Part shown: positions 4,460-40,814 of the stretch, one piece after another | How positions within the stretch are numbered: position 1 is the stretch's first letter | Layout of the letters: each line of letters opens with the position of its first letter | Source: Candidatus Latescibacterota bacterium | GTDB taxonomy: Bacteria; Latescibacterota; UBA2968; UBA8231 | Length of the DNA stretch: 64,000 nt | Direction of reading: 5' to 3' | NCBI GenBank assembly: GCA_965208105.1 | Contig: OZ242318.1 | Coordinates: forward strand, 4,768,001 to 4,832,000 | Program-made: the position numbers and the translations under genes | Notes under the pieces: model-generated | What the model was told of the DNA's origin: nothing | Database searches by the model: none | What the model saw: the letters and a program-made list of their open reading frames with translations, nothing else

Positions 4460-4625
4460 TATCAGCCCGTTGAAATAGTCCATCCGGGCTGCGGCCGGCC
4501 CTGGCGTTCGAATACGGCGTTGCGCTCCCTCCCCGAATCCCCTCGATTCGCCTCGGTCGCACGCCTTGCCTTCGACCGCCATGCCTCGGCCTCGCCTGCA
4601 GAGCAACTTTATCAACGGGCTGCTA
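4460..4625. mobile_element. 166-bp TA-bounded hairpin/MITE-like element, copy 1
   Basis: 11-bp TIR CAGCCCGTTGA (4463-4473) / TCAACGGGCTG (4612-4622) with TA at both ends. Minus-strand core GCAAGGCG...GCAACGCCG is shared with the elements at 22886 and 40648. Confidence 0.75.
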
Positions 4626-6254
4626 TGGGCTGGTTGGTTCTTCCTTGACCATCACTTCGATGAGCGCCGGGCGGCCCTCGAGGTTTGCTCTAGCTCCTCG
4701 GTCGAAGGCTGGAACGAGCTGCTCCGGGGTTTCGACCCGTTCGCTGTGGGCGCCGAGGGCCGCGCCTATTCTGGCATAGTCTCCGGTCAAGCGGTTGCTG
4801 CCCCAGCGCTCGGTGGCAGCGGGCATGTAGTGGGAATAGTTGGTCATCAGGCCATTGTTCAGGACGACTGTCATAATGGGGATTTCCGCCCGCGCACCCG
4901 TCTCGACATCCATTCCCGCCATTCCGAAGGATGCGTCTCCCATGATGTTGATGACCTGTTTCTCCGGCGCCGCCAGCTTTGCCCCAAGCGCCAGTCCCAA
5001 CCCGTAGCCGAGCTGGGTCGACTTGCCCCATCCAAGATATCCCCTCGGCGCGACCGGCTCCCAGAACGGAACGAACTGGTCGCGGGGAAATCCCGAGTCG
5101 TGAGTGACGATCGCGTTGGCGGCGTCAACTGCCTTGGCCAGCTCGGTGATTACCCTGTAGGGGTTGATGGGGACCTCGTCGGAGTGCAGCTTGGCGCCCC
5201 ACTCCGCCAGGAATGCCCGCTTCGAGCTGGCAATAGCGGGGGCGATGTCACGGCGGTCCCCGCGTCGCTTCTCACCTCCCTGGCGCTTCACCTCCTCGAT
5301 CATCTGGCGCAGGACAATCCTCGCGTCGCCAATCGCACCGCAGCGCACGTTGCGGTTTTTGCCAAGGTCCTCGGCGCAGTTGGTTACCTGCCCCAGGGTG
5401 ACTCCTTCGGGCATGGAGGTATTGAAATGATTGTTGGAGAAACTGGTCCCCAGGCCGAGCACGAAGTCGGTCTTGTCGAGAAAATGACGCACCATGCCGG
5501 TGGCGGAATATGCGCCAGCGCCCAGTGCCAGGGGATGGGTTTCGGGGAATGAGCTCTTGCCGGCCAGGGTTGTGAGCACCGGAATCCGGGTCAGCTCGGC
5601 GAAGGCAAGCAGTTCGGGGGCTGCCTCGGCCCACAGTACACCGTGGCCGGCGTTGATGAGGGGAAAGGAGGCCTCCAGCAAGGTCTTGACCAGGTCTCGC
5701 ACATCGTCGGCATCGCCGGCAGACTTGAATGATCTCGAAGGCAGGTAGTCGAAGCCGGCGTCGGGGAAGGTCTCGGCGCCAACATCCACCGGAGTCTCCA
5801 AAAGGACCGGACCCGGCCGCCCGTGCTTCAGCTGGCTGAAGGCCATGTGCATGAATTCGGGGATACGGCTTGCCATGTTGACGTGGGCCGACCACTTGGT
5901 TATGCCGCGGTAGTTTTCAACAGAATCAAAGTTGGGGTGGGATTGGTTGACCGGACGCGCGTGCCCGGCAGGCAGCACCAGAATCGGAATGGAGTCGGCG
6001 TAGGCCTGCGCCACGCCGCCGTAGGCGTTTTCGGCTCCCGGACCTTGTTGCATGACGAATACGCCGAACCTCCTGCCGTTGGCGACCCGGCTGAAGCCAT
6101 CGGCTATATTCACGCCCGTTCTTTCATGGCGGGAGATGATCGGCCGTATGCCCTCTTTGACCACCGCGTCGATCAGCGCGTTGTTGGGAAATGCTGCGAC
6201 CCACTCGACCCCTTCGGCTTTCAGAATCTTCGCCAATACCTCGTTGCCCGTCAC
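4623..6254 (-). CDS. Thiamine pyrophosphate-dependent enzyme (acetolactate synthase-like)
   Basis: 'RHERTGVNIADGFSR', 'QQGPGAEN', TPP motif 'MGDASFGM...VLNN'. Confidence 0.9.
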   Translation of the reverse strand: MTGNEVLAKILKAEGVEWVAAFPNNALIDAVVKEGIRPIISRHERTGVNIADGFSRVANGRRFGVFVMQQGPGAENAYGGVAQAYADSIPILVLPAGHARPVNQSHPNFDSVENYRGITKWSAHVNMASRIPEFMHMAFSQLKHGRPGPVLLETPVDVGAETFPDAGFDYLPSRSFKSAGDADDVRDLVKTLLEASFPLINAGHGVLWAEAAPELLAFAELTRIPVLTTLAGKSSFPETHPLALGAGAYSATGMVRHFLDKTDFVLGLGTSFSNNHFNTSMPEGVTLGQVTNCAEDLGKNRNVRCGAIGDARIVLRQMIEEVKRQGGEKRRGDRRDIAPAIASSKRAFLAEWGAKLHSDEVPINPYRVITELAKAVDAANAIVTHDSGFPRDQFVPFWEPVAPRGYLGWGKSTQLGYGLGLALGAKLAAPEKQVINIMGDASFGMAGMDVETGARAEIPIMTVVLNNGLMTNYSHYMPAATERWGSNRLTGDYARIGAALGAHSERVETPEQLVPAFDRGARANLEGRPALIEVMVKEEPTSP

Positions 6255-6393
6255 GGTTCACCGTCCTGTAGGTTTGAATTTCGGAGCATGCCACGGCTGC
6301 TGGATCGCCCGGGGAAAAGAACGGCACCCGGCGATGAATTTCTCCGCGGGAACCATCCTCGGTAGTTCGTCCGGAGTTTCCAATCGGCGGCAA

Positions 6394-7155
6394 TCAAGCC
6401 GGCCCATCCACCCCGAAGGCGCGCATGTAAATGCGCGTGATCTCGTTCAGATTGCCGTAAAAGGACCGCACCTCCGGATCGAGGTGATACTTCCAGAAGG
6501 ATGGAGGGATCAACGAGTCATTGGCCAGGTAAGGGCGTCCCCGGTGGCCATAGTAGACCTGCACGGTCTTGCGCTCATTGCGGGTCGGGCGGGTGGTGGC
6601 GGTGTGCAGCAGCGCCACGTTGAAGAGGCATACCGTGCCGGCCGCGCCGTGGATATGGACGCAGCCGGCGCGCTGGAGCTGTTTTGCGTTGTCATCCAGG
6701 ACCGGATCGTCGATGGACTCGGGCGAAATTGAGAAGCAGTGGGTGGTCTGGTCGACATCCGTGAGGTAGAGCATGAGTTGTATATAGTCCATGCGCAGGG
6801 GATGAGCGTTCCAGTGTGGACGATCGCGGTGCCAGTGCTGCTTGACCTCGCCGTCGTATGGTCCCATGGAGCGAATGCCGATCTCACCGAAGCAGACGGG
6901 GCCGCCCATGAGCTCTTCAACGGCCTGCATGATGCGAGGATGGCGGACCACTGCGTCGAACTCAGGAGTGGTTACCAGGGCGTCGTAGTTGCCGTCCTGG
7001 GTGCCCCGTCGCATCCACCGAAAGGGGGCCTTCTTGCGATCGGCGTCGAAAAGACCGACGAACTCCCCTATTTCACGGGGATTCAGCAGGTCGGTGCGAA
7101 CCAGGTATCCCTTGTGGCGGAAGAAGTCCAGGTTATCTTGGGTGAGGATGGTCAT
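6394..7155 (-). CDS. Phytanoyl-CoA dioxygenase (PhyH)-family Fe(II)/2OG enzyme, canonical HxD...H
   Basis: 'FFRHKGYLV', 'WHRD', 'AGTVCLFNVALLH', 'ERK'. Confidence 0.85.
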   Translation of the reverse strand: MTILTQDNLDFFRHKGYLVRTDLLNPREIGEFVGLFDADRKKAPFRWMRRGTQDGNYDALVTTPEFDAVVRHPRIMQAVEELMGGPVCFGEIGIRSMGPYDGEVKQHWHRDRPHWNAHPLRMDYIQLMLYLTDVDQTTHCFSISPESIDDPVLDDNAKQLQRAGCVHIHGAAGTVCLFNVALLHTATTRPTRNERKTVQVYYGHRGRPYLANDSLIPPSFWKYHLDPEVRSFYGNLNEITRIYMRAFGVDGPA

Positions 7156-7445
7156 TTTGAAAGTGGCCTGGTCATGTAAGGGGAATTTATCGGCAGGGCA
7201 GGCCCATGCTGTGGCCGGCCGGACGAATATCATAGGCAACTTCGCTGCGGCAGTCCAGGCCGATGGAAACCTTCAGGCCGGAAAGGGAGCCCGGTTCCAT
7301 GGGGTAGACAGCCTCTGACCGGGCCCGGCGGACGACAGGGAGAAGGATCGTGAAAATAGCGGCAACAATCGGCTGGAAACTCGATGCGGCGAAGCCCGCC
7401 CAAAGGTAGGAGGGCCATGGTGCAAATTATCCACGGAGTGCGGAA

Positions 7446-8747
7446 ATGGACCTGACCAGGCAACCTCCACGCCGCCCTTCGAACGACAGTGTCGCCGGAA
7501 TTGTCGGGCTGGCGCGCATGATCGACAAGGCGCGCGGCCACAACGCCGGCACCATTGGCGAGTTCAAGTACGGAGACGACTCGGGCCTCGATGCCGAGGT
7601 TCTCCGATTCATCAACATGGAAGCCGCCGAGTTCGCCAGGTCGGCCGGCGAACTGGACGACGATTCCCTGGGCGAGCTGGCCCTGGATAAGGCCCGGAAG
7701 AGCCAGGCGGCGATCGCTGCCTTCAACGAGGAACACCTGACCCGCGAGCCCCAGGACGAATTGCACCATCGGCTGCTCGCGGAGCGGGTCGCCAGGTACG
7801 CCCCGGACCGCAGGGACGTCAGGACGGTGTTCTCCTCCATTGAATTGGATGACTGGGGGGCGTTCAGGGACTCGGACCTGACCCGCGAGCCTCCGCGCAG
7901 TCCCTATGTCCGCAGTGTATTCGGTGTGTTTGGAGCGGCCCGAATGGCCGACAAGGCCCGTGCAGCAACGTGCGGAAAGCTGGGCGAGTACCGCTATGGG
8001 GTCGATTCGGGCCAGGACAGGGCGATTCTGGACTTTCTGGGCCTGGACCAGGAGGTCTTTTGCCGAGTTGCGCGTGGAAATCCCAACGACGACGAGCTGA
8101 GTGAGGAAATCGCTCGCCGTTGCGGAAAATCGCCCGCCGAAAAAAGCGTTTTCAACGTCCGGCAGGCCAACCTCGGCCGCAGCGGGGCGATGCGCCAGCG
8201 GCTGGAAAGGCGCCGCTCGGAGGTCGCCCCCCAGTGCGGGGAAATCGAGACTTTCTTCGACCTGCAGGACCTCGACGACGAGTTGAGCTTCGGCTTGACC
8301 GACCTGCGCCGGCACCCGCCGCGCAGTCCCTTCGACCTGGGCGTCGGTGGCCTCGCCTGCCTGGCGCGGATGATCGACAAGTTCAGGGCGGCGCGCTGCA
8401 ATTGCCTGGGAGGGTACTGGTACGGGGAGGATTCAGGTCTGGACCGGGCGGTCCTCGAATTTCTCGGTATCGACCCGAAGATCTTCGCCGGGGCCATTGC
8501 CTCCTGCGCAAGCGACGAGGAGGTGACGGAGTGGCTCGATAGCCGGCTGTCAGGCAAAAGCGACAGTGAGAAGGCGCGCTTCAACGAAGGGCTGCTGGCA
8601 TTTGGTCCGCGCAGCGAAGGTCACTGGCGCTTCCTGCGCGGATCCCTTGCCCGGCTCGACCCATCGCGCACCGATATTCAAACCTTCGCCGCCCTTGTCC
8701 TCCTCGACGACAGGCTGACCTTTGCGAGGCTCAAGGCCGGCGTTTGA
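7446..8747 (+). CDS. Protein of three tandem DUF5069-like domains
   Basis: Three units of about 140 aa, each 'DL.R.PPR.P....G...LARMxDK.R......G.Y.YG.DSGLD...L.F...FN...T...LDD'. Confidence 0.8.
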   Translation: MDLTRQPPRRPSNDSVAGIVGLARMIDKARGHNAGTIGEFKYGDDSGLDAEVLRFINMEAAEFARSAGELDDDSLGELALDKARKSQAAIAAFNEEHLTREPQDELHHRLLAERVARYAPDRRDVRTVFSSIELDDWGAFRDSDLTREPPRSPYVRSVFGVFGAARMADKARAATCGKLGEYRYGVDSGQDRAILDFLGLDQEVFCRVARGNPNDDELSEEIARRCGKSPAEKSVFNVRQANLGRSGAMRQRLERRRSEVAPQCGEIETFFDLQDLDDELSFGLTDLRRHPPRSPFDLGVGGLACLARMIDKFRAARCNCLGGYWYGEDSGLDRAVLEFLGIDPKIFAGAIASCASDEEVTEWLDSRLSGKSDSEKARFNEGLLAFGPRSEGHWRFLRGSLARLDPSRTDIQTFAALVLLDDRLTFARLKAGV

Positions 8748-8921
8748 GGACCCGACCCTTCACAGGAAGCGGGTGCGGGTGGAACCGCAAGGCACCCGTG
8801 ATGAGACCTCTCCAGCAGAAGAGTGACAACCTTCCGGAAGCTCGGTCCCCAGGTCAGGGCAAACAGCCATCATCAGCCGGGCACCGGCACTCCCTTCATC
8901 CTTTCGGAACCCTCCAGTCAG

Positions 8922-10475
8922 TCAGGGGGATTGGCGCACCTCGCGGCGCAACCCCGACCAGACGCAGAAGGCTAATCCGAGGAGGACAATCGCAAAGGGG
9001 AAGCCGGTGGCGAGGGAGGCGGCCTGCAGCGAGTTCAGACCTCCACCGAGCAGGAGGGCTATTGCGACCAGTCCCTCGATGGTGCACCAGAATACCCGTT
9101 GGGCTACCGGAGCGTCGATTCTGCCGCCCGCGGCTATGGTGTCCAGGATCAGTGATCCCGAATCCGAAGAGGTGACGAAGAACAGGACCGTCAGAAGAAT
9201 GGCGAAGGACGAAAGCAGCGTCCCCATGGGAAGCTCGTCGAACATCTTGAACAGGGCGATCTCCAGGCGCCAGGCCTCGACGTTCTCGGTCACCCCGGTA
9301 TATCCACCGACGATATGCTGGTGCAGTGCGGTGCCGCCGAAGGTGCCGAACCACAGCAGGCCGGCCGCCACCGGCAGGATCAGCACGAAAATCATGAATT
9401 CGCGCACCGTGCGTCCTTTTGAAATGCGGGCAATGAAGGTGCCGACGAATGGGGCCCAGGCGAGCCACCATGCCCAGTAGAAGGTCGTCCAGCCATGCAG
9501 AAAATCGGTGTCCTCCCGCCCTGCCCAGTTGCTGAGAGGGGCGATCTTGGCGAGATAGCTGCCGAGGGCGTCGACCATGCCGGCGAAGATGTAGAGGGTA
9601 GGTCCGAGCGCGATGACTGACCCCAGCAAAAGGAAGCCCAGGATCATGTTCCACTGGCTGAGCCGCTTGATACCGGAATCCAGACCTGCCAGCACCGATG
9701 CCAGGGCAACGGCGGTTATCCCAACGATCAGGACCACCATGGTGGTGCCGGTCGCTGGAACACCGAACAGGTAGTTCAGGCCCGAGGTCAGCTGCTTGAC
9801 CCCCAGCCCCAGGGAGGTGGCGAGCCCGAACAGGCCGGCGAAGATCGCGAAGGTATCGATTACGTGCCCGGGCCAGCCCCAGATGCGGTCGCCGAACAGG
9901 GGATAAAACCCGGAGCGAATGGTGAAGGGAAGTCCCCGGTTGTAGGCGAAGTACCCGAGCGCCAGTCCGACGAGCCCGTATATGCCCCAGCCGTGAAGCC
10001 CCCAGTGGAAGACCGTGGCCGCGATGCCGAGGGCTGCCGCCTCCCCGGTTCCGGCGGTAATTCCCAGCGGCGGGTGCATATAGTAGTAGACCGGTTCCGC
10101 AACCCCGTAGAACAGCAGGCCTATTCCCACCCCCGCCGCAAAGAGCATGGAAAACCAGGTGATGTAGGAGTACTCCGGTTCTGCTTCCCTCCCGCCCAGC
10201 CGCACCCTGCCCAGAGGAGAGATGGCCACGTACAGGCAAAAGAGAAGGATGAGGTTGGTGGTGGTCATGAAGAACCAGTCCAACCTGGTGGTGAGCCACT
10301 CGCGGGTGTTTCCGAAAACTTCCGTCGCCGCTTCCCTGAACAGCAGCGTCCCGATGAGGAAGGCGACAATGATGATTGCGGAAATCACGAACACCGGAGT
10401 CAGATGGATATCCATTCCAAAAAGCTTCCGGTACTCCCGGTGGATCGGCAGATTTGCGGTTTCTATTCCGGGCAT
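8922..10475 (-). CDS. BCCT family (betaine/choline/carnitine) transporter
   Basis: 'WFSMLFAAGVGIGLLFYGVAEP', 'FHWGLHGW', 'WTTFYWAWWLAWAPFVG.FIARISKGRT.REF'. Confidence 0.95.
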   Translation of the reverse strand: MPGIETANLPIHREYRKLFGMDIHLTPVFVISAIIIVAFLIGTLLFREAATEVFGNTREWLTTRLDWFFMTTTNLILLFCLYVAISPLGRVRLGGREAEPEYSYITWFSMLFAAGVGIGLLFYGVAEPVYYYMHPPLGITAGTGEAAALGIAATVFHWGLHGWGIYGLVGLALGYFAYNRGLPFTIRSGFYPLFGDRIWGWPGHVIDTFAIFAGLFGLATSLGLGVKQLTSGLNYLFGVPATGTTMVVLIVGITAVALASVLAGLDSGIKRLSQWNMILGFLLLGSVIALGPTLYIFAGMVDALGSYLAKIAPLSNWAGREDTDFLHGWTTFYWAWWLAWAPFVGTFIARISKGRTVREFMIFVLILPVAAGLLWFGTFGGTALHQHIVGGYTGVTENVEAWRLEIALFKMFDELPMGTLLSSFAILLTVLFFVTSSDSGSLILDTIAAGGRIDAPVAQRVFWCTIEGLVAIALLLGGGLNSLQAASLATGFPFAIVLLGLAFCVWSGLRREVRQSP

Positions 10476-10964
10476 GAATCAGAGTGTGCTGAGAAGGCTT
10501 GTTTGCGTTTTTCGGTTAATTTGCCCCCGAACAGTAGTGGAAAGGGCAAGCATGAATGAACGGACCTGGAGGAATATGCGGCAAACCGCCGAACGCCGGA
10601 AAATGCCGTCCGAAGGCGGAGCATCCCCTGCAGGTCTGACCGGAAAAGGCCCGTTCATTCACCGGGGGGCAGGCGCTGCCCCAGGTTGGAATCCCTGGAG
10701 AGGAATGGGCAGATCCGACGGTCCCAGTCCCTCCTTTCCATGTCCCCCGTGTGGACAGGTAGGTCGGGCGGCTGATCAGGGCGCAGTCAGCCTGGTGGTG
10801 GCCGCCGGAATCGCGCCATTCTCACCGCGGCCATCTCCGTTGAGCCCCACATCGCATTTCCTGCGGGAACGTCTACAACGGTAGTACGCCGGCTTCAGGT
10901 GGCCCTTTGGTCAGGCGGTGCAGGCCGGTCCGCCCGGGCGGGACTGGTCCATTTGCCCTGGGCT

Positions 10965-13900
10965 CTACAGACCAATTTGCCAGGAAACCGCGAGCTTCAC
11001 CCTGCGCCCCTTGGGATCGTGGGTGAAGCCGTCGTAGGCCTGTTCGATGTTGACCAGAGGAGGCCTGGTGTCGAGCAGGTTCATTCCCGAGAGCACCATG
11101 TTGACGCCCCTGGGCAGGGTGTATAGAAAGCTTATGTCCCAGGTGACGTAGCGGTCGATGGTACCGAACAGGTCTTTGACGGCGGCATTGTCGGAGGCCA
11201 TCGAACCCCGGTCCTCGTAGGAGTGAATGTAGTTCAGGTAGCTCACGAGGCCATAGGACTGCCAGTGATAGCCTGCCGATGCCCGCCCCTTCAACTTGGG
11301 CAGGGAAGTCGCGATCGGATTGCCGAAGTTCAGGTAGCCGGCAGCGTCCGCGGCTTCCTGCAGCACCAGATCGCCCAGCATCAGGGCCTTGGTCTCGTAC
11401 TGGCGGATATAGCTGCCGTCCAGACTGGCCGAGAACTGCCCCGCGCCCGCGGGCATCCGCGAGCCCAGATGCATGTCGAATCCCGAAGTCCTCACCCCAG
11501 GCCAGTTGACGATATCCACCTGCACCCGCTCGAGCTCGGAGGCCGCGCAGGTGCCCGTGCCTACCCCATCCGGGCAGACGATGAACCGCTTCAGGGCATC
11601 CTTGTTGGCTTCATCGGCATACAAGGCGGTTATGGCCCCGTGCGGCATCGCACCGATTACATCGCTGAAATCGTAGCTCCAGTAGTCGAATGTAGCGTCA
11701 TAGCCCGCCTCGGTGACCACGACGATACCCGCGTTATAGGTAAATGCCCGTTCGGGTTTGAGGTCCTTGCTCCCGATCCGGTCCACCGTTTGATAAGCGC
11801 CCGTTTCATTGATCCACTCGAGGGTCGAGAGCGGGCTTTCGTTCACGTCGTCCAGCGACGGGGTGCGAAAGGTCGTCTGCAGCGAGCCGCGCAGAAACAC
11901 GGATTGGGTGGAGGATTCCACCAGCTGGTAGCGAAATCCGATCTTGGGGTCGAAACTGCTCGCCACATCGTGGAACTCGTAGTTGGCCGCGAGTTGGGTG
12001 TCGAAGCGCGAACCCAGGCTGAGGGGCACCTCGGCAAAGATGCGATGCACCGTCTGCGACTCATCGTAGGGCCGATTCACATTGGTGAAGGCATAGGGAC
12101 CGAACCTGTCCTCGGCTGAGCAGCTCTTGTCGCCGACGACCGGACAGGGGTTGATGGTGACGTCGCCTGGGTCGTTGGGATCGCCGCTGGCATTGAGGAG
12201 GCGGAGCTGATAGCCGGCGGCGTAACTGGCCACGTTCTCGATCCAGGTTCCGCTCAGGGTCGCATCGGCGACCAGCATGTCCGCCGTGCTCTGCAAATCG
12301 ACTTCCTGGTTCAGCCATTGCCGCAACTCCTCGCTGTTCCTGAGATCGCGCCGGTAACCGGGGTTCGGCCGGTTCTCGTAATCCGAGCCGTACTGATCGG
12401 TGAACTCGATGGCATTGCTGAAGGGGTTGTAGTACTGGCAGCCGCCCTGTCCGGCCACCTGGCCGTTGAGCGGGCCAAGCCGCATCCCGGCCAGGGATCC
12501 GGGGTCCGCCTCCACGCCGACGCCGCAATCGGGTCCGCCGAACCCGCGGAAGCCGAGGAAGAGCCGCTCGATGTACACCCCCGGCAGGTTGTAGTTGCCC
12601 TCGGTGCGGGAGTACGAGAGGCCCAGGTCGAATTGGGTCTCCCGGCCGCCGAATGACTTGAAGTCGCCATTCGCGGAGGCCGCCAGGCGCAAGGTCCTGG
12701 AATCGCGGCCCAGGGTGCGCCCGGGCCCCGAGTTGCCGAAGGGGCGGCCGTTGAAGTACCAGTTATCCTCGGCCTGGCACTCGTCATAGTAGAGGTCCCC
12801 ATCCTGGGCGCCGTAGTCCTCGCAGAAGGCCTGCCGGCCCGGGTGGCCGGGCGCGACCTCCTGGATGCTCGTGTCCGTCAGGGGAAAGGGTGGGTACGAG
12901 GGCGTGGTGTACCAGCTGGGGATTTCGGCCGCTGCCCACAGGCCCTCGAAGTGATACTCCGTGCCATTGCCGAGGGCACCGTTGATCTCGGCGAAACCAC
13001 GGGTATGGCTCATCTCCTCGATCAGGTTCTCGTACTGCTGGTAGCGGAAGCGGCAGGTCCAGGACTCCCGGAAGCCTCCGAACTCCGAGCAACGCGGGGC
13101 GTGGATGGCAGCGGTCCAGGGCGCCGGGGCGCCGACGGCAAAGGTGCCCGGGTTGCCGATGCTCGACCAGCCGAGGCGCTGCCCCCCGCCGTGCCACGGC
13201 TGCAGCAGGTAGTCCCTTTCGGTTGCCGGCAAGGCCCGGCGCCCGCGCCATTCGCCGGCCACGACCGCGTGGGCCCCGCCGAGCTTGCCGCCCCAAATGG
13301 CGCCGACGTCGGTGTCCCCTGCGCCGGCGATGTACTCGTGATTGGCGGAGACTTCAAATCCCGTGAAGTCGGAGCGGGTCAGGAAGTTGGCGACCCCGGC
13401 GACGGCGTCCGATCCATAGATGGCCGCGGCCCCTTCCTTGAGGACCTCGACCCGGTCGAGGGCGATGGAAGGGATGGCGTTCACATCGACGAAGCGGCCG
13501 CCGATCAGGCGCGCCGGGACATAGGTCTGGCGGCGGCTGTTGATCAACACCAGGGTCCGCGAGGCCCCCAGACCACGCAGGTTCACGTTGGCTATGCTCT
13601 CGGAAAGGGTGGCGGCCTGATTGGCGTTGTACCAACTGCTGCGCTCGCCGATCACCCCGTGGCTGGCACTCAGGTTCTTGAAGAAATCCACCGCCTGCGG
13701 CGACCCTTGCTCGGCCAACTCGTCGCGCCCGGTCACGGCGACTGCGTAGGTCGAGCTGATGTGGGAGTCCTTGATGGCGGTCCCGGTCACAGCGGTCTCA
13801 TCGAGGAGGATGGCCGAGGGTTTCATGCGCAACTCGACCACCGCCGTCTGCCCGGCCTGCACCACGACCGTCGCGGTCGCGCGCAGGTAGCCGATCAAGT

Positions 13901-22868: not shown

Positions 22869-22885
22869 AACGGATCCGGAGGTTC

Positions 22886-23053
22886 CTAGTGTCCCGTCGC
22901 AGAGATAGGTTGACGAAATTGGGCCGCCGAGGCGCCCGGCTCACAAGGCGCCTGAGCGAGTCGTACCAGTGGTGTACGGCGAGTGAAGGCAACGCCGTGA
23001 GCCGGGATGGATCGGCGGAATAATGGCGACATATTTCTGCGACGGGACACTAG
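22886..23053. mobile_element. CTAG-bounded hairpin/MITE-like element, copy 2 (166 bp TA to TA)
   Basis: 18-bp perfect TIR CTAGTGTCCCGTCGCAGA / TCTGCGACGGGACACTAG; inner stem CCCGGCTCAC/GTGAGCCGGG; 78-nt core 71/78 identical to copy 3. Confidence 0.88.
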
Positions 23054-23811
23054 AGCATCAGGTCGCCGCCGTTTATATCGATGGACGCCCCGGTGGTGTA
23101 GGGAGAATCCGCAGCCAGGAAGAGGGCGAGCCGGGCGACCTCCCCCGGCGTGCCGAGTCTGGGAATGGGGAAACTTTGCTCGTAGGCGCGCAGCTTCTCC
23201 GTGTCGCAGTTCCGGCGCACCATCTCGGTGTCGATCAGGCCGGGACAGATGGCGTTGGCCGTGATGCCGTGGGGCGCCATTTCCTTCGCCAGCGCCCTGG
23301 TAAAACCGAGGACTCCCGCTTTGGCGCTGGTGTAGTGGGCGCCTCCCAGGGTACTGACGCTCCTCCCGGCGGAAGAGGACATGTTGATGATGCGGCCGAA
23401 TCCGTTCCGTTTCATGGTGGCGAGAACGGCCTGGGAGCACAGAAAAGTGGCTCTCAAATTAACCTCCATTACCAGGTCCCACTCCTCCGGAGATATGGCC
23501 TCGATGCGGGTCGAGTGCAGGATGCCCGCATTGTTCACCAGGATGTGAATGGATCCGAACTCGTCGAGCACGGCTTCCACCATGGCCGCGACCTGGTCTT
23601 CCTTGCCTACGTCCGTCGGCAGGGCCAGGACCTCTGCCCCGTCTCCTTCGATGCGGGCAGCAGCCTCTCTGAGGCCGTCGCCGGAGATATCGCACAAGGC
23701 GACGCGGGCGCCTTCCCGTGCCATCAGCGAGGCGATGGCGAATCCCATACCCTGAGCAGCGCCGGTCACGATGGCGACCTTGTCGTCCAGTTTTCCACGC
23801 GGTGCTGCCAT
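23050..23811 (-). CDS. SDR family oxidoreductase (FabG-like)
   Basis: 'TGAAQGMG', 'LVNNAG', 'YTSAK', 'ICPG.IDT'. GGAGG SD. Confidence 0.93.
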   Translation of the reverse strand: MAAPRGKLDDKVAIVTGAAQGMGFAIASLMAREGARVALCDISGDGLREAAARIEGDGAEVLALPTDVGKEDQVAAMVEAVLDEFGSIHILVNNAGILHSTRIEAISPEEWDLVMEVNLRATFLCSQAVLATMKRNGFGRIINMSSSAGRSVSTLGGAHYTSAKAGVLGFTRALAKEMAPHGITANAICPGLIDTEMVRRNCDTEKLRAYEQSFPIPRLGTPGEVARLALFLAADSPYTTGASIDINGGDLML

Positions 23812-24013
23812 GGACGGGCAATCCTCCTTGCCGCGCAAGGTGGGCTGTGCTCCACAGGCCCTCAAGGGTGGCTTGCGGGGTCGCGCGGCCTATTGAATAT
23901 GACAACAAATGCCCGCCCGTCCAGACGTTTGCAGGAGGGGGCTGCACGTGGAGGTGGGGGCCCGGTCCCGGGATGTCGCCGGGAAGGGATTCTCATCTTC
24001 CGGGAAGGCTGCC

Positions 24014-33760: not shown

Positions 33761-33897
33761 CGGGCATCCCGGAGGTTATCGAGGCCGTTGTTCCGGCGCC
33801 TTCGACCACACCCTGGCCCGGGAACGGCGGCGGGAAGCAGGGGCCGACTCAGCGGCGGCGGCAGAGGTCCACGCCTTGATTTCGGCAGGAGGTAGCA

Positions 33898-34098: not shown

Positions 34099-34101
34099 GG
34101 A

Positions 34102-34887
34102 ATGGAGAGCTGCGATTTTCTCTCCCTGCTCAAAGAGCATGGTCAGATGCCCGCGGCCCCGGCGGCGGCGGTCGAAATGCACGGCGACGGCGTGCAAGGG
34201 GCGGAGGGTACGACCATCCTGGCACTGCGCTACGGCGCCGGGGTACTGGTGGCGGGGGACCGCCGCGCCACCATGGGCAACGTGGTGGTCTACGACCGCG
34301 CCGACAAGGTCCTCTGCATCGACGACGATGCCGTGATGGCGCTCTCGGGTTCCCCCGCCATTGCCGTCGAGGTCGCCCGCATGCTGGAAGTCTCGTTTCA
34401 GCACTATCGCCGCAGCCAGTTGCAGGAGTTGAGCCTGGATGGCAAGCTGCGCATCCTGTCGCGCCTGCTGCGCGAGAACTTGCCCATGGCGGTGCAGGGA
34501 ATCGGGGCCGTCGTCCCCATCTTCGCCGCCTTTGACGCCGCTGCCGCCAGCGGCAAGATCTTCTTCTACGATATCCTGGGAGCCCAGTTCGAATCGGTAG
34601 ATTTCTGTACCACGGGCTCCGGGTCGCCCATCATCCGCGGCGCGCTCTACCACCTGAATCGCTGGGGAGACCAGCCTTTGGCCTCCATGGACGAGCGCAC
34701 TTCACTCACCCTCATTCTCAAGATGCTGGAAACGGCGGCCGAGTACGATACGGCCACCGGCGGCTACAAACCCAGCGCCAGGATTTATCCACAGGTCATG
34801 CGCATCACCGCCGACGGAATCGATGCGGTCGCGGAACCCGAGCTGGAAGCGCTCTACCGGACCGCCCTGGGTGCGGCAGCCGATTAG
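34102..34887 (+). CDS. prcB: 20S proteasome beta subunit
   Basis: Propeptide ending AEG|TTILAL. Counting from Thr1 gives Asp17 (GDRR) and Lys33 (ADKV). Also 'TGSGS' and 'DTATGG'. Confidence 0.93.
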   Translation: MESCDFLSLLKEHGQMPAAPAAAVEMHGDGVQGAEGTTILALRYGAGVLVAGDRRATMGNVVVYDRADKVLCIDDDAVMALSGSPAIAVEVARMLEVSFQHYRRSQLQELSLDGKLRILSRLLRENLPMAVQGIGAVVPIFAAFDAAAASGKIFFYDILGAQFESVDFCTTGSGSPIIRGALYHLNRWGDQPLASMDERTSLTLILKMLETAAEYDTATGGYKPSARIYPQVMRITADGIDAVAEPELEALYRTALGAAAD

Positions 34888-34911
34888 TGTTCCCGGCGGG
34901 ACAGGTCCATC

Positions 34912-35676
34912 ATGCTCGAAGAACCTTATCGCTGGGTAGAGGCCATTCAAAATCGGCGCGACTACCTCGACCACCAGCTCCAGGACGCGAGCCCCGTGGT
35001 GGGCATGGGCTATGACAACGGAATTGTGCTGCTGACCACGACGCCGGGGCCGAGGAAGCTCTTCGAGGTCTACGACCAACTGGCCTTCGCCGCCATCGGG
35101 CACCCCGCGGATATCGAGAAACTGCGCAAGGCCGCCATCGACATTGCCCATCTCGAAGCGTTCAACTTTTCAGCCAGCGACGTAACCTTGCAGCGGCTGG
35201 TGAGTTTCGGCCTGGGCCCGGTCATCAAGGGGGCCTTCGACGAGATCTTCCGCTCGCCCTACACGGCCCGCATTCTCATGGCAGAGCTCGATCCTCCCGG
35301 CGAGCAGGATGCCTTTTTCACCATAGACCCCGACGGGTCGTTCATCAACTCGAGCGGCAGCGCCGTGGTGTCGGGATCAGAGGAGAGTGCCGCGGCCATG
35401 CGCAGACATCTACAGCGGTATGAAGGAGAAGAGCCGGACCTCGAAGAGGCTCTCAGGCAGGGGATGGAAGCATGGGGAGCAGGCCGCCTCCAGGCCGCGG
35501 GGGAAGAGGACCACCAGCCTGATGGCGAGGAGATCAGGGACTTTCTGGGTGAGGCCTTGAAAGGTCAGCGGATCGAGGCGGCGGTGCTCGATCGCACCCG
35601 GCCCACCCGGACCAAATTTCGTCTGCTGCAGGCGGCCGAGTGCGAAGCAATCCTGGCTGCCCCCGGCGACTCCTGA
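34912..35676 (+). CDS. prcA: 20S proteasome alpha subunit
   Basis: 'EEPYRW', 'SPVV', 'RKLFEVYDQLAFAAIG', 'IEAAVLDR....KFR'; operon context. Confidence 0.88.
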   Translation: MLEEPYRWVEAIQNRRDYLDHQLQDASPVVGMGYDNGIVLLTTTPGPRKLFEVYDQLAFAAIGHPADIEKLRKAAIDIAHLEAFNFSASDVTLQRLVSFGLGPVIKGAFDEIFRSPYTARILMAELDPPGEQDAFFTIDPDGSFINSSGSAVVSGSEESAAAMRRHLQRYEGEEPDLEEALRQGMEAWGAGRLQAAGEEDHQPDGEEIRDFLGEALKGQRIEAAVLDRTRPTRTKFRLLQAAECEAILAAPGDS

Positions 35677-35747
35677 CGGCGGCTGCCGATCAGGGGTGAA
35701 TCCCAGGCAGGGACTGCCTGGACGGACCCTCAGCACGGACGCGGGAA

Positions 35748-37166
35748 ATGGAAGATCGCATCTTTGGAATCGAGGTCGAGTACGGTTGCCTGCCTCCCGA
35801 ATCGGACCCCTTCCTCAGTCCTGACTTCATTTCGGTCAAGGCCAAGGATTGCCTGTTCTACCGCGAAGGCCTGGGAATCGTCGACATTCACTACCGCGGC
35901 AGGGATGAACCCCCGGGCAACGGGGGATTTCTGTTCAACGGCGGGCGAATCTACATCGACATGGGGCACGTGGAATACGCCACTCCCGAATGCAAGGGGA
36001 TATTCGACCTGGTGGCCGCCGACCGCGCCGGGGAAGTGGTGATTCAGCGCGCCCTGGAGCAACTGGGCCTGGCAGAGGGCGCCGCCTTCTTCAAGAACAA
36101 CATCGACCACTATACCGGGGCCACCTTCGGCTGTCACGAGAACTATCTCGTGCGGCGCGAGGTGTCCTTCTCGCAGGTATTGCTGCCGGCCATGCTGCCC
36201 TTCTTCGTGACTCGCCAGATTTTCGCGGGGGCGGGGAGGGTGGGATGCCACACGGACATCTTCGAATACGGCCGGGGAGAGGAAGGAGAGATCAACTATC
36301 AGATCTCGCAGCGGGCTGATCACATCGTCACCGAGATCTACCAGTGGATTCAGTTCAGCCGGGCGATTATCAACACCCGCGACGAACCGCTGGCCGACTG
36401 GGAGTTCTACCGCCGGCTCCACCTTCTGGTCGGCGACTCCAATATGTCCGAGTACGTCACCGCTCTGAAGGTGGGCACCACCGCTCTGTTGCTCGACTTG
36501 CTGGAGGAGAACATCATTCCCAGGGTGAAGCTCCTCGACCCGGTTGCGGCCATCCGCGTCATCTCCCGCGATATGCGCTTCAAGTGGGAGGTGCAGCTCG
36601 AGGACGGCCACTATACCAACGCCATTGAAATCCAGCGCCAATATCTCGAGCTGGCCGAGCGCTACTTGCGCGGCAAGGACGAGGAGGTGAATTGGGTCCT
36701 CGACGAATGGCGTTTCGTCATCGACGGCCTCGAGTACGACCCCATGAGCCTGATCGACCGCGTCGATTGGATCGCAAAGAAGTGGCTGCTGGAAAACTTC
36801 ATGGAGGCGGAAGGGTTGGACTGGCGCGATCCAATGATCCAGAGTCTCGATCTGGAGTACCACAACCTCAATCCGGGCAAAGGTCTCTACTTCGATTTGC
36901 GCGACCGCGGCCTTACCAAGCGGGTCGTGGACGAAGGGCTCGTTAACAATGCGATTGTAACGCCGCCCCAGGACACCCGCGCCAGGGCGCGTTCGGCGGT
37001 CATGCGCGCCCTGACCGATCAGAAGACCCGCTATGTCATCGATTGGGACTCCATCTACGTGGAGGACGAGAAATACCTCAACCTGGACGATCCCTTCCTC
37101 ACATACGCCGACGAGACCGCTGAATTCATCGAGGAGTGCCGTCAACCCACCCCCCGCCTGCTTTGA
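35748..37166 (+). CDS. pafA: PafA-like UBact/Pup-protein ligase
   Basis: 'RIFGIEVEYG', PafA-type 'FLFNGGRIYIDMGHVEYATPEC', 'KNN.D', 'GCHENY', 'NTRDEPLAD', 'RRLHLLVGDSNM', 'DLEYH'. Confidence 0.88.
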   Translation: MEDRIFGIEVEYGCLPPESDPFLSPDFISVKAKDCLFYREGLGIVDIHYRGRDEPPGNGGFLFNGGRIYIDMGHVEYATPECKGIFDLVAADRAGEVVIQRALEQLGLAEGAAFFKNNIDHYTGATFGCHENYLVRREVSFSQVLLPAMLPFFVTRQIFAGAGRVGCHTDIFEYGRGEEGEINYQISQRADHIVTEIYQWIQFSRAIINTRDEPLADWEFYRRLHLLVGDSNMSEYVTALKVGTTALLLDLLEENIIPRVKLLDPVAAIRVISRDMRFKWEVQLEDGHYTNAIEIQRQYLELAERYLRGKDEEVNWVLDEWRFVIDGLEYDPMSLIDRVDWIAKKWLLENFMEAEGLDWRDPMIQSLDLEYHNLNPGKGLYFDLRDRGLTKRVVDEGLVNNAIVTPPQDTRARARSAVMRALTDQKTRYVIDWDSIYVEDEKYLNLDDPFLTYADETAEFIEECRQPTPRLL

Positions 37167-37228
37167 ACCGCGCCCTTCCTCTCAGTCCGGATGCCGAGTC
37201 ATCCGGAATTCCCCCTTCCGGGTTTGGA

Positions 37229-40200
37229 ATGGCGGAATTCCTGCGTCCGTCTTTCGGCTCCATCCTCGTTGTTGCTGCCTCCCTGTTGGGGGCCTGGGGA
37301 CCTGCCCGGGGGGATTTCCTCTGTGCCGGCAAGGACGACTCCGTCCCCCCGCGGGGAAAGCCGGCCGTGCGCACCACCGGATCGCTTAACGCGCTGGTTA
37401 TATTCGCCAAATTCCAGGGAGAGGCGCCAGGCAACGACCGGGCGCCTTCCTGGGCACCGGACCTGTTCAACAGGCAGAGGCCCGGCAGCTTTGCCCATTT
37501 CTACGACGAGATGTCCAGGGGGCAGTTGCGGGTGGACGGGCAGGTCCTGCCGCGGCGCTACAGTTCTCGGCGGGATGCTTCGGCCTACCTGGCCCCGGGG
37601 GCCGGCCTCAGGGGCCGGTTCGGGCAGTTCAACCTGGAGATTCTGGAGCAGGCCGATCTGGATGTGGACCTGGGGCGCTTCGACAACGACGGCGCCGACG
37701 GAGTCCCGAACTCCGGTGACGACGATGGCTACGTGGACGTCGTTTTCATCAACCTGCTTACGGTCCCCGAGAACTTCTTCGTTTCCAGGGCCACCGGGTT
37801 GGCCTCCCTCGGCCTGGAGACCGATTTCATCAGCGATGACCCTGCGGCGGGCGGCGGATGGATTCGCATCCCCAGCCGGTTCACCGGCTTCGGGGGCACG
37901 ACACAGCGCGGCCACGTGTTCAGCGTCACGGCTGCAACCATGTGCCACGAGTTCGGCCACATTCTTGGATTGCCCGACCTGTTCGATCAGACTTCGATTT
38001 ACGCCGGCGCCGAACTCGACCCCGCCGAGGACAGCGCGGGAATCGGCAAGTGGGGATTGATGGGGCTGGGAACTCTGGGCTGGGGGGAGGTGGACGGCCC
38101 CAATGCCTTCTGCGCCTGGTCGCTGGCGCAACTGGGCTGGGTTGGGGTCGGCAACGAGCATCTGATCGAGGTCGAACAGAGCCTCATCGGTGCCGTCTTC
38201 GATGACATCGACAGCGGCGGCAAAGTCTACAAGATCCCGGTGGGCGCGGAGGAGTACTTCCTTCTGGAGAATCGCCAGAATTCGTCATCCTTCTACAATC
38301 GAAACATTCCGGCCGGCGGAATCCTGGTCTGGCACGTGGACGACGGCGCCGACAACGACGAGGAGCGCCACAAGCAGGTGGACCTGGTCTGTGCCGACGG
38401 GTTGTACGCGGACCGCGGTTTCCCCGCCCTTCGTCCCGATCCGGTGTGGGGCAGGGACAATCTGGACTTCTGGTCTCGCGACCAAGCCTACGCCACGGCT
38501 CACAACGGCAACCAGGGCGACGCCGGCGATCCCTTCGACGGGGTCGCCCGGACTCGCTTTGCCCACGACACCAACCCGGGGTTCAGCGCCCACGCGGGGT
38601 TGAGTCGCAATCTGCCCCTGGGTTTCGCGGTTGAGAATATCCGCGCCCGGGGTACCCGATTGACAGCTGACATTCTGGTGGGGCAGCCACTGGATGGGCA
38701 TGTGCATGCGGACACCACCTGGTCCGGCGAGGTGATTGTCGGCGGTGACGTCGTGGTGCAGCCGGGAGCGACCCTTACCCTGGCGCCGGGTACGACAGTG
38801 CGCATCCCGAGGGGGGACGGTCGCCGGACGGGGTTTTACCCGGAGCGCTCGGAATTTCTGGTCTTCGGCGACCTGGTGCTGCAGGGAAGCACCGGGAATC
38901 CTCTGTCCTTCGTTTCGGGCGCCGCGTCGCCTCGGAGCGGCGATTGGGCCGGACTCTTTCTTATGAACGCCCAGGATCCGGACTTGCGTGAGGTCCACAT
39001 CGAGAACGCGGCGCATGGTGTTGTGCGCTCCCACCTGCCGCCTGGCAGTACGCGCTGGTCCGGAATCCGGACCCTGCCGCGGGACCTGACCGTACCCGCA
39101 GACGCGGAGCTGGTTATCGAGGCGGGGACGAGGGTGGGCTTCGCCAGCACGGACCTGGGTGCAGGCGGCCGCAGCCCGCAATTGACGGAGCTGATCGTCG
39201 AAGGCCGGCTGCGGGTGGAAGGGAGTGACGCCCAGGCGGTGCGCTTCGACCTGGCCTCCGGCAGCCCTGATTCGGTCTGGTTCGGGGTGCGCCTGCGGCC
39301 GGGCGCCCAGGTGGAAATCCGCCACCTTCAGGAGGAGCAGTGCGTCATCGGCTTCAGCGGGGAGGTCACCGAAGCCGGAGCTTTGAGCATCGCCGACAGC
39401 CGCATCGCCACCACGGCCGGAAATGGTCTGCGTCTTGCGATCAACGGCACGGTGGAGGTTGATCGCACCATCTTCAGAGGTCATCCACTACAGGGCATAT
39501 TTGCCGAGGGCAGCGGCCGACTTCTGCTGCGCAACTCCACCGTGCGGGAAAACGGCCAGGAAGGGATCTTCCTGGGCAATTGTTCCCTGGAGGCGATCCG
39601 CACGACCGTAGAGGAGAACGGCCTGTTGCAGGCGGAGGACCCGCGCCCCGGCCTGCGGGCGGTGGGTGGACGGGGACAGAAGATCGAGTTGTGGAACTGC
39701 GCGGTAGGGCGCAATACCCTGCATGGCCTCGACCTGGGGTCCTGGGAGGGAGTCCTGGAATTGCACCGCAGCGAGGTCAGCGCAAATCGCGGCAACGGCC
39801 TGGTGCTGGCCGCCCTGGAGCGGGTGATTTTCGAGGACGTGAAGGTGAGGCGCAACCTGGGAACCGGGGTGGAAAGCAAAGCCGCTCCGGTGGAGATCTG
39901 GACCACGGAATTCGTCGACAATATCGGCCCCGGTCTGATCCTCGGCGAGGGGACCACGGGAGCGATCGAGATGTGCCATTTCCGCAACAACACCGGCCTC
40001 CGCCTGGAGAGCGCGGGAGAGCTGTTTGTGCGCACCAGCACGTTCGAGAACACCGCCTTGGGCCTGGCATCCCTGAACTCGGCACCCAGGCTCTTCGGAA
40101 ACCGCTTCAGCAACAATCTCAAGGCCATCGAGGTGAGCGGAACGATGGTTCCGGCGGAGATTGTCCGCAATGTCTTTGTCGACAATCGCACCGCCATCGA

Positions 40201-40639
40201 CAACAGCACGAATCTGACCCTGGTGGCACGGGACAATTACTGGGGAACGGTGGACACGACGGCCATAGCGGCCCTGTTCAGGGGTGCAGTCGAATGGGCG
40301 CCTTTTCTCGAGGAAGATCCGGGCGAGACCGACCTCGCCGCCGAGGTCGGCGCGCAGCCGGCGCAGTTCGCACTGCATGCAGCTTTCCCCAATCCATTCA
40401 ACGGACAGACCACCATACGGTTCGACATTGCCGCGCCGGTGTCCGCCGAGCTCGTGGTGTACAACCTCGGGGGACAACCTGTGCGCAGGCTTCTGCGCCG
40501 GGACCTGCATCCCGGTTTCTATGCAGGGGTCTGGGATGGACGCGGGGATAACGGCCGGAAGGTGGCTTCCGGCGTGTATCTCTACCGTCTGCGGGCGGGA
40601 TCTTTTTCAGCTAGCGGCCGGGTGCTGGTATTGCGCTGA
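37229..40639 (+). CDS. Secreted M6 (immune inhibitor A-like) metalloprotease with beta-helix region and FlgD-Ig/T9SS-CTD-like domain
   Basis: 'HEFGHILGLPDL', 'GIGKWGLMG.G', 'EYFLLENR', parallel beta-helix repeats, 'PNPFN..TTIRF..VYNLGGQ..WDG....G..VASGVY.YRL'. Start uncertain. Confidence 0.85.
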   Translation: MAEFLRPSFGSILVVAASLLGAWGPARGDFLCAGKDDSVPPRGKPAVRTTGSLNALVIFAKFQGEAPGNDRAPSWAPDLFNRQRPGSFAHFYDEMSRGQLRVDGQVLPRRYSSRRDASAYLAPGAGLRGRFGQFNLEILEQADLDVDLGRFDNDGADGVPNSGDDDGYVDVVFINLLTVPENFFVSRATGLASLGLETDFISDDPAAGGGWIRIPSRFTGFGGTTQRGHVFSVTAATMCHEFGHILGLPDLFDQTSIYAGAELDPAEDSAGIGKWGLMGLGTLGWGEVDGPNAFCAWSLAQLGWVGVGNEHLIEVEQSLIGAVFDDIDSGGKVYKIPVGAEEYFLLENRQNSSSFYNRNIPAGGILVWHVDDGADNDEERHKQVDLVCADGLYADRGFPALRPDPVWGRDNLDFWSRDQAYATAHNGNQGDAGDPFDGVARTRFAHDTNPGFSAHAGLSRNLPLGFAVENIRARGTRLTADILVGQPLDGHVHADTTWSGEVIVGGDVVVQPGATLTLAPGTTVRIPRGDGRRTGFYPERSEFLVFGDLVLQGSTGNPLSFVSGAASPRSGDWAGLFLMNAQDPDLREVHIENAAHGVVRSHLPPGSTRWSGIRTLPRDLTVPADAELVIEAGTRVGFASTDLGAGGRSPQLTELIVEGRLRVEGSDAQAVRFDLASGSPDSVWFGVRLRPGAQVEIRHLQEEQCVIGFSGEVTEAGALSIADSRIATTAGNGLRLAINGTVEVDRTIFRGHPLQGIFAEGSGRLLLRNSTVRENGQEGIFLGNCSLEAIRTTVEENGLLQAEDPRPGLRAVGGRGQKIELWNCAVGRNTLHGLDLGSWEGVLELHRSEVSANRGNGLVLAALERVIFEDVKVRRNLGTGVESKAAPVEIWTTEFVDNIGPGLILGEGTTGAIEMCHFRNNTGLRLESAGELFVRTSTFENTALGLASLNSAPRLFGNRFSNNLKAIEVSGTMVPAEIVRNVFVDNRTAIDNSTNLTLVARDNYWGTVDTTAIAALFRGAVEWAPFLEEDPGETDLAAEVGAQPAQFALHAAFPNPFNGQTTIRFDIAAPVSAELVVYNLGGQPVRRLLRRDLHPGFYAGVWDGRGDNGRKVASGVYLYRLRAGSFSASGRVLVLR

Positions 40640-40647
40640 GATCCGGC

Positions 40648-40814
40648 CTAGTGCCTGCTTGCGCAATTCCGCGTGAATTCGGCCGCCGCTGCATCCCGGC
40701 TCGCGGCGTTGCCCTCCCTCGCCGTACACTCCAGGTACGACTCGCTCAGGCGCCTTGCGAGCCGGGCGCTTCTGCGCCCTCGTTCGTACGCTTACTTACG
40801 CAAGCAGGCACTAG
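40648..40814. mobile_element. CTAG-bounded hairpin/MITE-like element, copy 3 (165 bp TA to TA)
   Basis: 16-bp perfect TIR CTAGTGCCTGCTTGCG / CGCAAGCAGGCACTAG. Core is the reverse complement of copy 2 (71/78 nt). Lies between convergent genes. Confidence 0.88.

Follow-up and report, generated by a model that had tools for sequence, protein, structure and literature searches.

A hairpin repeat family with one conserved core and exchangeable IS630-like ends in Candidatus Latescibacterota

The window analysed here, a stretch of 64,000 nucleotides from a Candidatus Latescibacterota bacterium (contig OZ242318.1, positions 4,768,001 to 4,832,000 of the forward strand), carries three copies, named c1, c2 and c3, of a TA-bounded repeat of about 166 bp that can fold into a long hairpin. 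We consider it probable, at roughly 0.75, that this repeat forms a family of MITEs (miniature transposable elements with inverted repeats) present across Candidatus Latescibacterota, whose movement most likely depends on IS630/Tc1-type DDE transposases acting in trans. The family is ordinary in kind, an IS630-type MITE; what is unusual is that its conserved and covarying part is the core, and that its ends are exchangeable.

The three copies and their family

The window belongs to a genome (G000) assembled as one contig of 4.85 Mb; its G+C content is 61.6% and its completeness 94%. The coordinates of the three copies and of their parts are those of the window, and lengths from TA to TA count both duplicated TAs.

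22887..23052, plus strand: c2 copy, 166 bp with the duplicated TA at each end; consensus-like, with a second, identical copy at genome position 613262
22887..22907, plus strand: left TA and terminal inverted repeat of c2 (GTGTCCCGTCGCAGAGA...), which pairs with 23032-23052 as helix 1
23032..23052, plus strand: right terminal inverted repeat of c2 and TA; the CTA at 23050-23052 is the stop codon of an SDR gene
22922..23018, plus strand: asymmetric conserved core of c2, element positions 36-132; no match in the 8 insertion sequences (IS) examined
40649..40813, minus strand: c3 copy, 165 bp; the forward orientation of the family is the minus strand
40683..40779, minus strand: conserved core of c3, element positions 35-131
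4460..4625, minus strand: c1 copy, 166 bp; the forward orientation is the minus strand
4462..4492, minus strand: terminal mini-palindrome of c1, 31 bp (GCAGCCCG...CGGGCTGC); first base mutated in the window copy
4494..4590, minus strand: core of c1, with the centre motifs of c2 and c3, its inner and apical stems being swapped for other complementary sequences

Once c1 and c3 are reverse-complemented, all three copies align around a common centre, CAAGGCG...GCAACGCCG. The coordinates given in the original prediction are as we find them, and so are its TA-to-TA lengths (166, 166 and 165 bp) and the terminal stems it quoted; the common centre, the compensatory A-T/G-C pair, the three differences in the apical loop and the replaced stems of c1 that it described are all legible in the alignment. 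It had counted 71 of 78 core nucleotides as shared by c2 and c3, where BLAST gives 87.6% identity over 97 nt. The stem that it proposed for the end of c1 holds for the window copy but not for the family, whose consensus end is TA-GCAGCCCGTTGA, the window copy being substituted at the first element base (window 4462). The C and the G found outside the terminal TAs are part of a CTAG target and lie outside the element.

BLASTN of the whole genome with the three elements returned 186 loci, well beyond what chance would give. If a copy counts as full when it aligns over no fewer than 150 nt with an identity not below 85%, 119 copies are full—90 of c2, 15 of c3 and 14 of c1—and the core, used as nhmmer query, has 144 matches in the genome. 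Identity to the corresponding window copy ranges from 98 to 100% for c3, from 88 to 100% for c2 and from 92 to 100% for c1. The window gave no match in a gathering-level scan of Rfam; in permissive scans nothing was found with c1, and c2 matched only MIR918, at 19 bits for a cut-off of 268, a chance resemblance to a plant-miRNA hairpin.

Outside this genome, BLAST searches of 41 related genomes with c2 detected the family in 15. The core was found in each of the 97 matches retrieved from relatives, and 32 of these also have TA-bounded ends 155-175 bp apart, with at least 12 of 16 terminal positions matching. A covariance model (R1), built from 21 sequences and run on 151 sampled genomes of the phylum, found the family in 48 of them; by taxonomic family the positives are 29/63 in f1, 16/19 in f4, 1/2 in f3, 1/1 in f7, 0/30 in f2 and none in the others. 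Length is 163-169 nt among the covariance-model matches listed, and variants of 202-203 nt occur in genome G014.

Insertion at TA and empty sites

The elements are mobile, because empty sites exist for c1, c2 and c3. In G001, a genome of the same genus, the c2 flanks are contiguous over a single CTAG, and the c1 site lacks about 165 bp and reads ...GGAGGCACTAGGGGCT...; in a relative (locus L022) the c3 site spans 30 bp vs 193 bp in the window, c3 being absent. A precise empty allele of c2 was found in a 1810-nt contig from DNA run X5, which belongs to another study: it joins 22885 to 23050 and leaves out 164 nt; the joint holds 4 ambiguous letters, and another 12 differences occur in about 1050 aligned letters. 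The insertion of c2 is therefore polymorphic among close strains. The mobile repeat family that the original prediction had raised as a possibility, suggesting that empty sites be examined, is thereby upheld, and it matches no family of Rfam.

Insertion occurs at TA, preferably within the rare CTAG and often at a TAG stop codon, and the TA is duplicated. Nearly all c2 and c3 copies are bounded by C-TA-GTG...CAC-TA-G, and CTAG stands on both sides in 14 of 15 c3 copies. The length of the duplication was counted on the 48 c2 copies that keep both terminal TAs: on the left, 46 copies have CTAG as their 4-mer, and the right one is CTAG in 36, CTAA in 7, CTAT in 4 and TTAG in 1. A duplication of TA fits all 48 copies, whereas one of CTA fits 46 and one of CTAG only 34, so that the 3-bp and 4-bp duplications were rejected. 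Read in the orientation of the element, the outer flank of these copies is C on the left in 46/48 and G on the right in 37/48 (Fisher p=0.014); the c2 target therefore looks like C-TA-N and not like a symmetric CTAG.

CTAG occurs at 1649 sites in the genome, 0.10 of the expectation from base composition, and 142 of these sites are ends of the 119 full copies. With a set of 3679 genes predicted by a crude, purpose-made caller, the terminal TAG/CTA is the stop codon of a neighbouring gene in 67/119 copies (c2 50/90, c3 10/15, c1 7/14). As the element begins with G and finishes with C, both CTAG and the stop codon are rebuilt on either side. Most c2 copies are intergenic (81/85); they are enriched between convergent genes (32/83 vs 664/3678 intergenic spaces, p=2e-5) and depleted between divergent ones (7/83 vs 663/3678, p=0.02). 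In the same gene set TAG is the stop of 1057 of the 3679 genes, and 319 genes end in CTAG.

One core with many ends

The terminal inverted repeats (TIRs), 12-21 bp long, are specific to each subfamily, and inside each subfamily they are conserved like ordinary TIRs. Chimeras are nevertheless present in the genome: c3-left/c2-right twice, c2-left/c3-right, c2-left/c1-right, and a c1 apex within c2 ends. The subfamilies thus recombine with one another.

The Pfam domain DDE_3, typical of the IS630 family, has 13 matches in the genome, accounted for by three IS, here ISA, ISB and ISC, and by fragments. ISA is 1162 bp long, has 9 full copies and is flanked by CTAG like the MITEs; all three IS have TA-GTG... 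ends in CTAG, and IS with TA-GTG...CAC-TA ends occur in relatives too. Among the 44 IS loci retrieved from relatives through PF13358 (DDE_3) matches, two carry ends close to those of the MITEs. The right end of c2 matches at 20 of 22 nt the end TAGTGTCCCGTCCCAGGAATAT of a 1173-bp IS of G016 that encodes a 360-aa transposase (E=3.5e-4); the right end of c3 and the end TAGTGCTGCTTGGCGCAATTC of a 1398-bp IS of G001 agree at 20 of 22 nt in an alignment that has one gap (E=0.05, weak if taken alone). The likeness between MITE and IS is confined to the terminal 20-33 nt, and the core (element positions ~35-132) has no match in the 8 IS examined.

In relatives the ends vary strongly by lineage, as exemplified by GTGTCGCGTCTCAGG, GTGTGCTGTCGCAG, GTGCCCTGTTCAATAAC and GTGCCCCGCGGCG, and an element of G020 has an end, GTGCTCCGTTAAGGAAAT, that resembles the end of ISA. 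Both arms change together between lineages while the core stays. As the ends of c2 and c3 match two distinct IS, the differences between subfamilies appear to track the ends of different IS630-family IS. The original prediction had opposed these repeats to classical MITEs, in that their structure and not their terminal sequence would be conserved; this opposition does not survive, since the ends are kept within a subfamily as TIRs are and differ between subfamilies in the manner of distinct IS. The perfect matching of the terminal arms is not special either, because any TIR pair shows matching termini.

By their ends, the elements are best classified as IS630-type MITEs whose partner IS, with matching ends, are found in relatives and none in this genome; mobilisation in trans by IS630/Tc1-type DDE transposases is most likely. 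A transposase whose IS ends match those of the window copies, which the original prediction had proposed to look for, was thus encountered for c2 and c3, and neither for c1 nor in the own genome. A search for the mariner-type Transposase_1 (PF01359) gave no match in the genome, its control having matched nowhere either.

Several other insertions involve these ends. The 9 copies of ISA (e.g. G000:C1:2041413-2042574) are 99.5-100% alike and have separate helix-turn-helix and DDE_3 frames, perhaps linked through a frameshift; two of these copies occupy precisely the CTAG that bounds a c2 element. The 31-bp end palindrome of c1 also occurs solo at about 19 genome sites as judged by eye (e.g. G000:C1:4253151-4253181), bounded by TA or CTAG, and c2 or c3 is often inserted at the CTAG of these solo palindromes; exact pattern matching found 15 matches, of which 6 are solos. 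Finally, an IS110-family IS of ~1.55 kb (DEDD_Tnp_IS110 and Transposase_20; e.g. G000:C1:181884-183437) is present outside the window in 12 copies, of which 10 sit within the outermost bases of a c2 end; the two remaining targets end in ...ACCACT or ...AACACT, similar to the c2 end, and DNA run X7 shows the junction between this IS and a c2 end as a loose end. This IS appears to be site-specific, homing on the MITE terminus.

A hairpin that covaries between lineages

The structure was analysed on an alignment (A2) of 21 sequences from 10 genomes, in which the three copies of the window are joined by 18 relatives whose identity to one another stays under 92%. The RNAalifold prediction for it has 8 helices with 56 pairs in all. 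Changes on both sides are seen in 41 of these 56 pairs, compared with 21.0±2.7 in shuffled alignments (0/500 reach 41) and with 14-20 when the pairing partners are slid by 1-3 columns, figures to be read knowing that the structure was derived from A2 itself and that the shuffle control ignores the relatedness of the sequences, which the slid control does not. Paired cells amount to 91.5% vs 77.8% in shuffles. All 8 helices covary, including the apical helix 8 at 7/7 pairs, and the most conserved columns are the unpaired or asymmetric motifs CAAGGCG, GAGCGA, GCAACG and GGGATGGATCGG. The long hairpin with fixed asymmetric motifs and near-fixed length that had been proposed from the three copies is thus conserved, with covariation that extends to the non-terminal helices. 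Lack of further copies, lack of covariation and a match with a known family had been named as arguments against it; the copies found in the genome, in related genomes and with the covariance model, the covariation reported here and the Rfam scans all go the other way.

The pairing is strand-specific. On the forward strand, across the family, G:T cells number 96 and A:C cells 21; G:T exceeds A:C in 27 pairs and the reverse is true in 7 (p=0.0008). For c2, the forward strand and its complement are predicted to fold at -106.8 vs -84.0 kcal/mol with RNA parameters and at -53.3 vs -47.3 kcal/mol with DNA parameters. The folded molecule that covaries across lineages may be RNA or DNA.

The copies resident in one genome behave otherwise. 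Among the 90 c2 copies, 102 G:T and 91 A:C result from changes at consensus pairs; mutation frequency is 0.042 at paired positions and 0.046 at unpaired ones, and pairs broken on one side (279) are far commoner than compensated doubles (24). The resident copies decay neutrally. An excess of compensated doubles runs counter to this: 22 are counted among the 90 copies for 4.6±2.0 expected, a value reached in none of 2000 shuffles. They concentrate at the tips, with 19 in the terminal 19 pairs and 3 in the 44 inner pairs (128 and 242 single-sided changes respectively), and the copies with a double in common mostly have no further mutation in common. This excess could stem from small sub-lineages whose ends vary, or from a correction from arm to arm.

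Because lineages covary while resident copies decay neutrally, selection would act on the lineages that spread and not on the inserted copies, which argues against a function of the copies at the level of the host. The regulatory role also envisaged in the original prediction finds no support here: residents decay neutrally, and their orientation ignores transcription, as seen below.

Orientation relative to replication

In G000 the minimum of the cumulative GC skew, at 2.97 Mb, agrees with dnaA at 2.98 Mb, and the maximum lies at 0.39 Mb. The forward strand of the element is on the lagging-sense strand in 79/119 copies (p=0.0004), with a switch of orientation at ~3.0 Mb; the less stably folding complement is therefore on the lagging-strand template. 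Among the 66 copies with exactly one gene reading in, 50 obey the replication rule whatever the direction of the gene, and the sense is the same as that of the gene in 29 and opposite in 37. Genome G008 follows the rule in 28/36 copies (p=0.001), a hand count with the origin placed at dnaA, the terminus assumed opposite and two opposite-strand duplicate rows dropped. In G141 the rule is obeyed by 41/88 copies when dnaA is taken as origin, and by 33/88 according to the sign of the sampled GC skew, a reverse tendency (p=0.02).

We treat the orientation bias as real in two genomes, G000 and G008; the rule fails in G141. The latter genome, complete with 5.84 Mb, has an odd skew: in forty 20-kb windows it is positive only at about 3.64-5.3 Mb, and there is no switch at dnaA (2.67 Mb). 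Very unequal replichores, a rearrangement or a misassembly are possible reasons for this skew. Candidate sources of the bias itself are the loss of copies with the stabler hairpin on the lagging-strand template, or an orientation-specific insertion.

How the family may spread, and other explanations

The data show that the element enters a TA, preferably in CTAG, and duplicates it, its initial G and final C restoring CTAG and the stop codon. Each subfamily has ends resembling those of a different IS630-family IS, fused to the common core, and the complete element is a long asymmetric hairpin with covarying pairs. We propose that the structure is kept through selection on the lineages still transposing, and not on resident copies. 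Lastly, and this is the least certain step, the fold of one strand might aid the mobilisation of such a very short element, for instance by uniting its two ends.

Several points weigh against this proposal, beside the limits of the structural controls given above. The ends of ISA, ISB and ISC show no likeness to those of c1, c2 and c3 past the first few bases (TAGTG), and TIR pairs at IS-like spacing were not found in the genome apart from pairs formed by separate MITEs. When the matching transposases of relatives are compared to this genome by tblastn, identity does not exceed 33%, with no close homologue; an identity of 99-100% is nevertheless seen between several c2 copies in this assembly, which is 94% complete and in which no resident partner IS was found. 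The c1 TIR was found at none of the ends of the 44 IS loci from relatives. Covariation in the terminal helix could merely reflect both ends tracking one transposase. Besides, textbook IS630/Tc1 transposition is a double-stranded cut-and-paste, which gives no reason for strand-specific G:T pairs or for an orientation linked to the replichore.

In a stronger version, the family would be an asymmetric hairpin chassis of locked length, unmatched in the IS examined, which came to occupy the phylum by repeatedly adopting the ends of different IS630-family IS and whose propagation depends on the hairpin of one DNA strand. We regard this stronger version as possible though doubtful. If true, it would imply a single-stranded or cruciform stage, linked to the direction of replication, in the mobilisation or the retention of Tc1/IS630-type MITEs, for which the literature searched gave no precedent in this transposon superfamily.

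A different way to explain symmetry dispenses with any selection of the structure: the two arms of palindromic DNA would be kept alike by template switching or by the correction of mismatches between them, and the covariation of the termini would be that of TIRs tracking one transposase, as is normal between IS lineages. The compensated doubles within c2, in excess over expectation and mostly shared by copies without other common mutation, speak for this explanation, and so does one copy in which a complementary TG...CA replaces TA...TA, a change inexplicable by a transposase. Correction should however wipe out asymmetric bulges, and the unpaired motifs are precisely the most conserved over 10 genomes; it also predicts equal numbers of G:T and A:C, against the 96 and 21 observed across the family. 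Moreover, since the doubles are 19 in the terminal pairs and 3 in the inner ones, correction does not maintain the inner helices of the residents, and these inner helices nevertheless covary between lineages. We therefore judge this explanation unlikely. Quite unlikely, in our view, is also that the hairpin is an RNA element of the host, placed at the 3' ends of genes as mRNA stabiliser, processing site or terminator and kept by host selection. The abutment of 67/119 copies on a stop codon, the enrichment of c2 between convergent genes and its depletion between divergent ones (7/83), and the very stable predicted RNA folds (-84 to -107 kcal/mol) would suit such a role; RNA libraries contain contigs in which pieces of MITE are joined to various flanks, and roles of this sort are described for MITE RNA hairpins in the available part of PMC10969869, having been proposed for Correia, ERIC and REP repeats. 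On the other hand the residents carry no sign of purifying selection (0.042 vs 0.046, breaks far above compensated changes, G:T equal to A:C in c2), their orientation relative to the gene reading in is random (29 same, 37 opposite), and no T-run follows the hairpin as it does in an intrinsic terminator, an identity rejected on this ground. The RNA-library contigs are no proof of transcription, runs X16 and X17 giving only short contigs over the repeat; and a position after genes is explained as well by the CTAG/TAG target together with the loss of harmful insertions in promoters.

Elements that duplicate the whole CTAG (MITEs of the IS1380, IS5 or IS1182 type), or a single-strand system such as REPINs with a Y1 transposase (RAYT/IS200), might be invoked because CTAG stands on both sides of most copies (34/48 c2, 14/15 c3), and because strand-specific pairing and replichore-linked orientation recall single-strand transposition. 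This is highly improbable and largely refuted: 14/48 c2 copies have unequal 4-mers at their ends while the inner G and C are invariant and TA fits all 48, the ends match IS of the DDE_3 (IS630) family, and the Y1 transposase PF01797 has 0 matches in the genome, in a search whose control matched in 6/14 genomes. With no Y1 match and with a TA duplication, a REPIN/RAYT identity was rejected. Integron attC sites also conserve structure rather than sequence and carry bulged bases; this identity was rejected on the dispersal of the copies, the TA duplication and the IS630-type ends, no integrase search having been made.

Relation to known elements

With the bacterial MITEs derived from IS630/Tc1-mariner elements the Latescibacterota family shares its small size, the lack of coding capacity, the multiple copies, the duplication of TA, the IS630-like TIRs and a presumed mobilisation in trans. 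RUP of Streptococcus pneumoniae is reportedly a MITE of this sort, attributed to IS630-Spn1. The Latescibacterota family differs from RUP, compared here by its description only, in having one core, unmatched in the IS examined, that is combined with many IS630-type ends across a phylum; it differs further by its near-fixed length of ~166 bp, its covarying inner helices and its strand-specific pairing.

Correia elements duplicate TA, and we know of no parent IS for them. These elements of Neisseria, also called NEMIS, are abundant MITEs of ~100-200 bp with inverted-repeat ends, a conserved core, hairpin transcripts and subtypes of ends, as far as the consulted portions of PMC2649163 and PMC10969869 describe them. 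They are thus similar to the Latescibacterota family in size, conserved core, long hairpins and subtypes differing in their ends. By contrast promoters, an IHF site and RNase III cleavage are documented for Correia and not for the Latescibacterota family; and Correia is confined to one proteobacterial genus, when the other spans a phylum.

To our knowledge REPINs make no target duplication. They are doublets of REP sequences that form hairpins with compensatory changes, the structure being thought to matter in single-stranded DNA for their own replication (PMC3116915, from the part available). They are tied to RAYT (Y1) transposases, unlike the Latescibacterota family with its TA duplication, its IS630-type ends and its lack of Y1 match. 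ERIC and bcr1 are imperfect palindromes of ~127-155 bp, intergenic, and ERIC acts at the 3' ends of genes (excerpts of PMC10969869 and PMC3184786); bcr1 reportedly keeps its RNA structure by compensatory changes and has 5-bp direct repeats (same excerpt of PMC3184786). Both occur in other taxa with other sequences, the 5-bp repeats of bcr1 set it apart, and a role at the RNA level has evidence for ERIC and bcr1.

In the literature searched, supplementary files being outside its scope, no paper on MITEs in Latescibacteria was found, nor one describing a single IS-unmatched core on many IS630-type ends across a phylum, nor strand-specific pairing or replichore orientation in such an element. The sole paper found that joins MITE, IS630 and CTAG concerns MITEPsy1, which is IS5-like with a 4-nt duplication (PMC3189936), and the terms IS630, stop codon, chimeric and lagging do not occur in the 2024 review PMC10969869.

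The interest of the family lies in its core: unmatched in the IS examined, and marked by helices that covary and by bulges and a length that stay fixed, it is retained from genus to genus and from family to family while the ends swap. MITEs are usually treated as decayed IS fragments of which the ends alone are functional. The family offers a natural experiment on the requirements of a very short transposon beyond its ends, and on how non-autonomous elements change transposases. If strand-specific pairing and replichore orientation hold, they would point to a single-strand step lacking in current models of IS630/Tc1. More practically, the covariance model flags more than 100 repeats per genome in metagenome-assembled genomes of Latescibacterota, and such repeats break short-read assemblies and furnish many TAG stop codons.

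Neighbouring genes

The CTA at window 4623-4625, one end of c1, is the stop codon of a minus-strand gene for a TPP-enzyme (4623-6254). In the same way the right end of c2 provides the stop codon for the SDR gene on the minus strand (23050-23865), and a Zn-dehydrogenase gene begins 18 nt past the other end of c2. The third copy, c3, lies between two convergent genes, that of a beta-helix protein (37136-40639, plus strand) and gatB (40849-42306, minus strand), and starts 9 nt beyond the stop codon of the former. In the beta-helix protein, of 1167 aa, beta-helix/NosD regions occur along with peptidase M6-like ones, and there is a FlgD_ig-type domain at the C-terminus; its tail resembles a sorting signal for type IX secretion.

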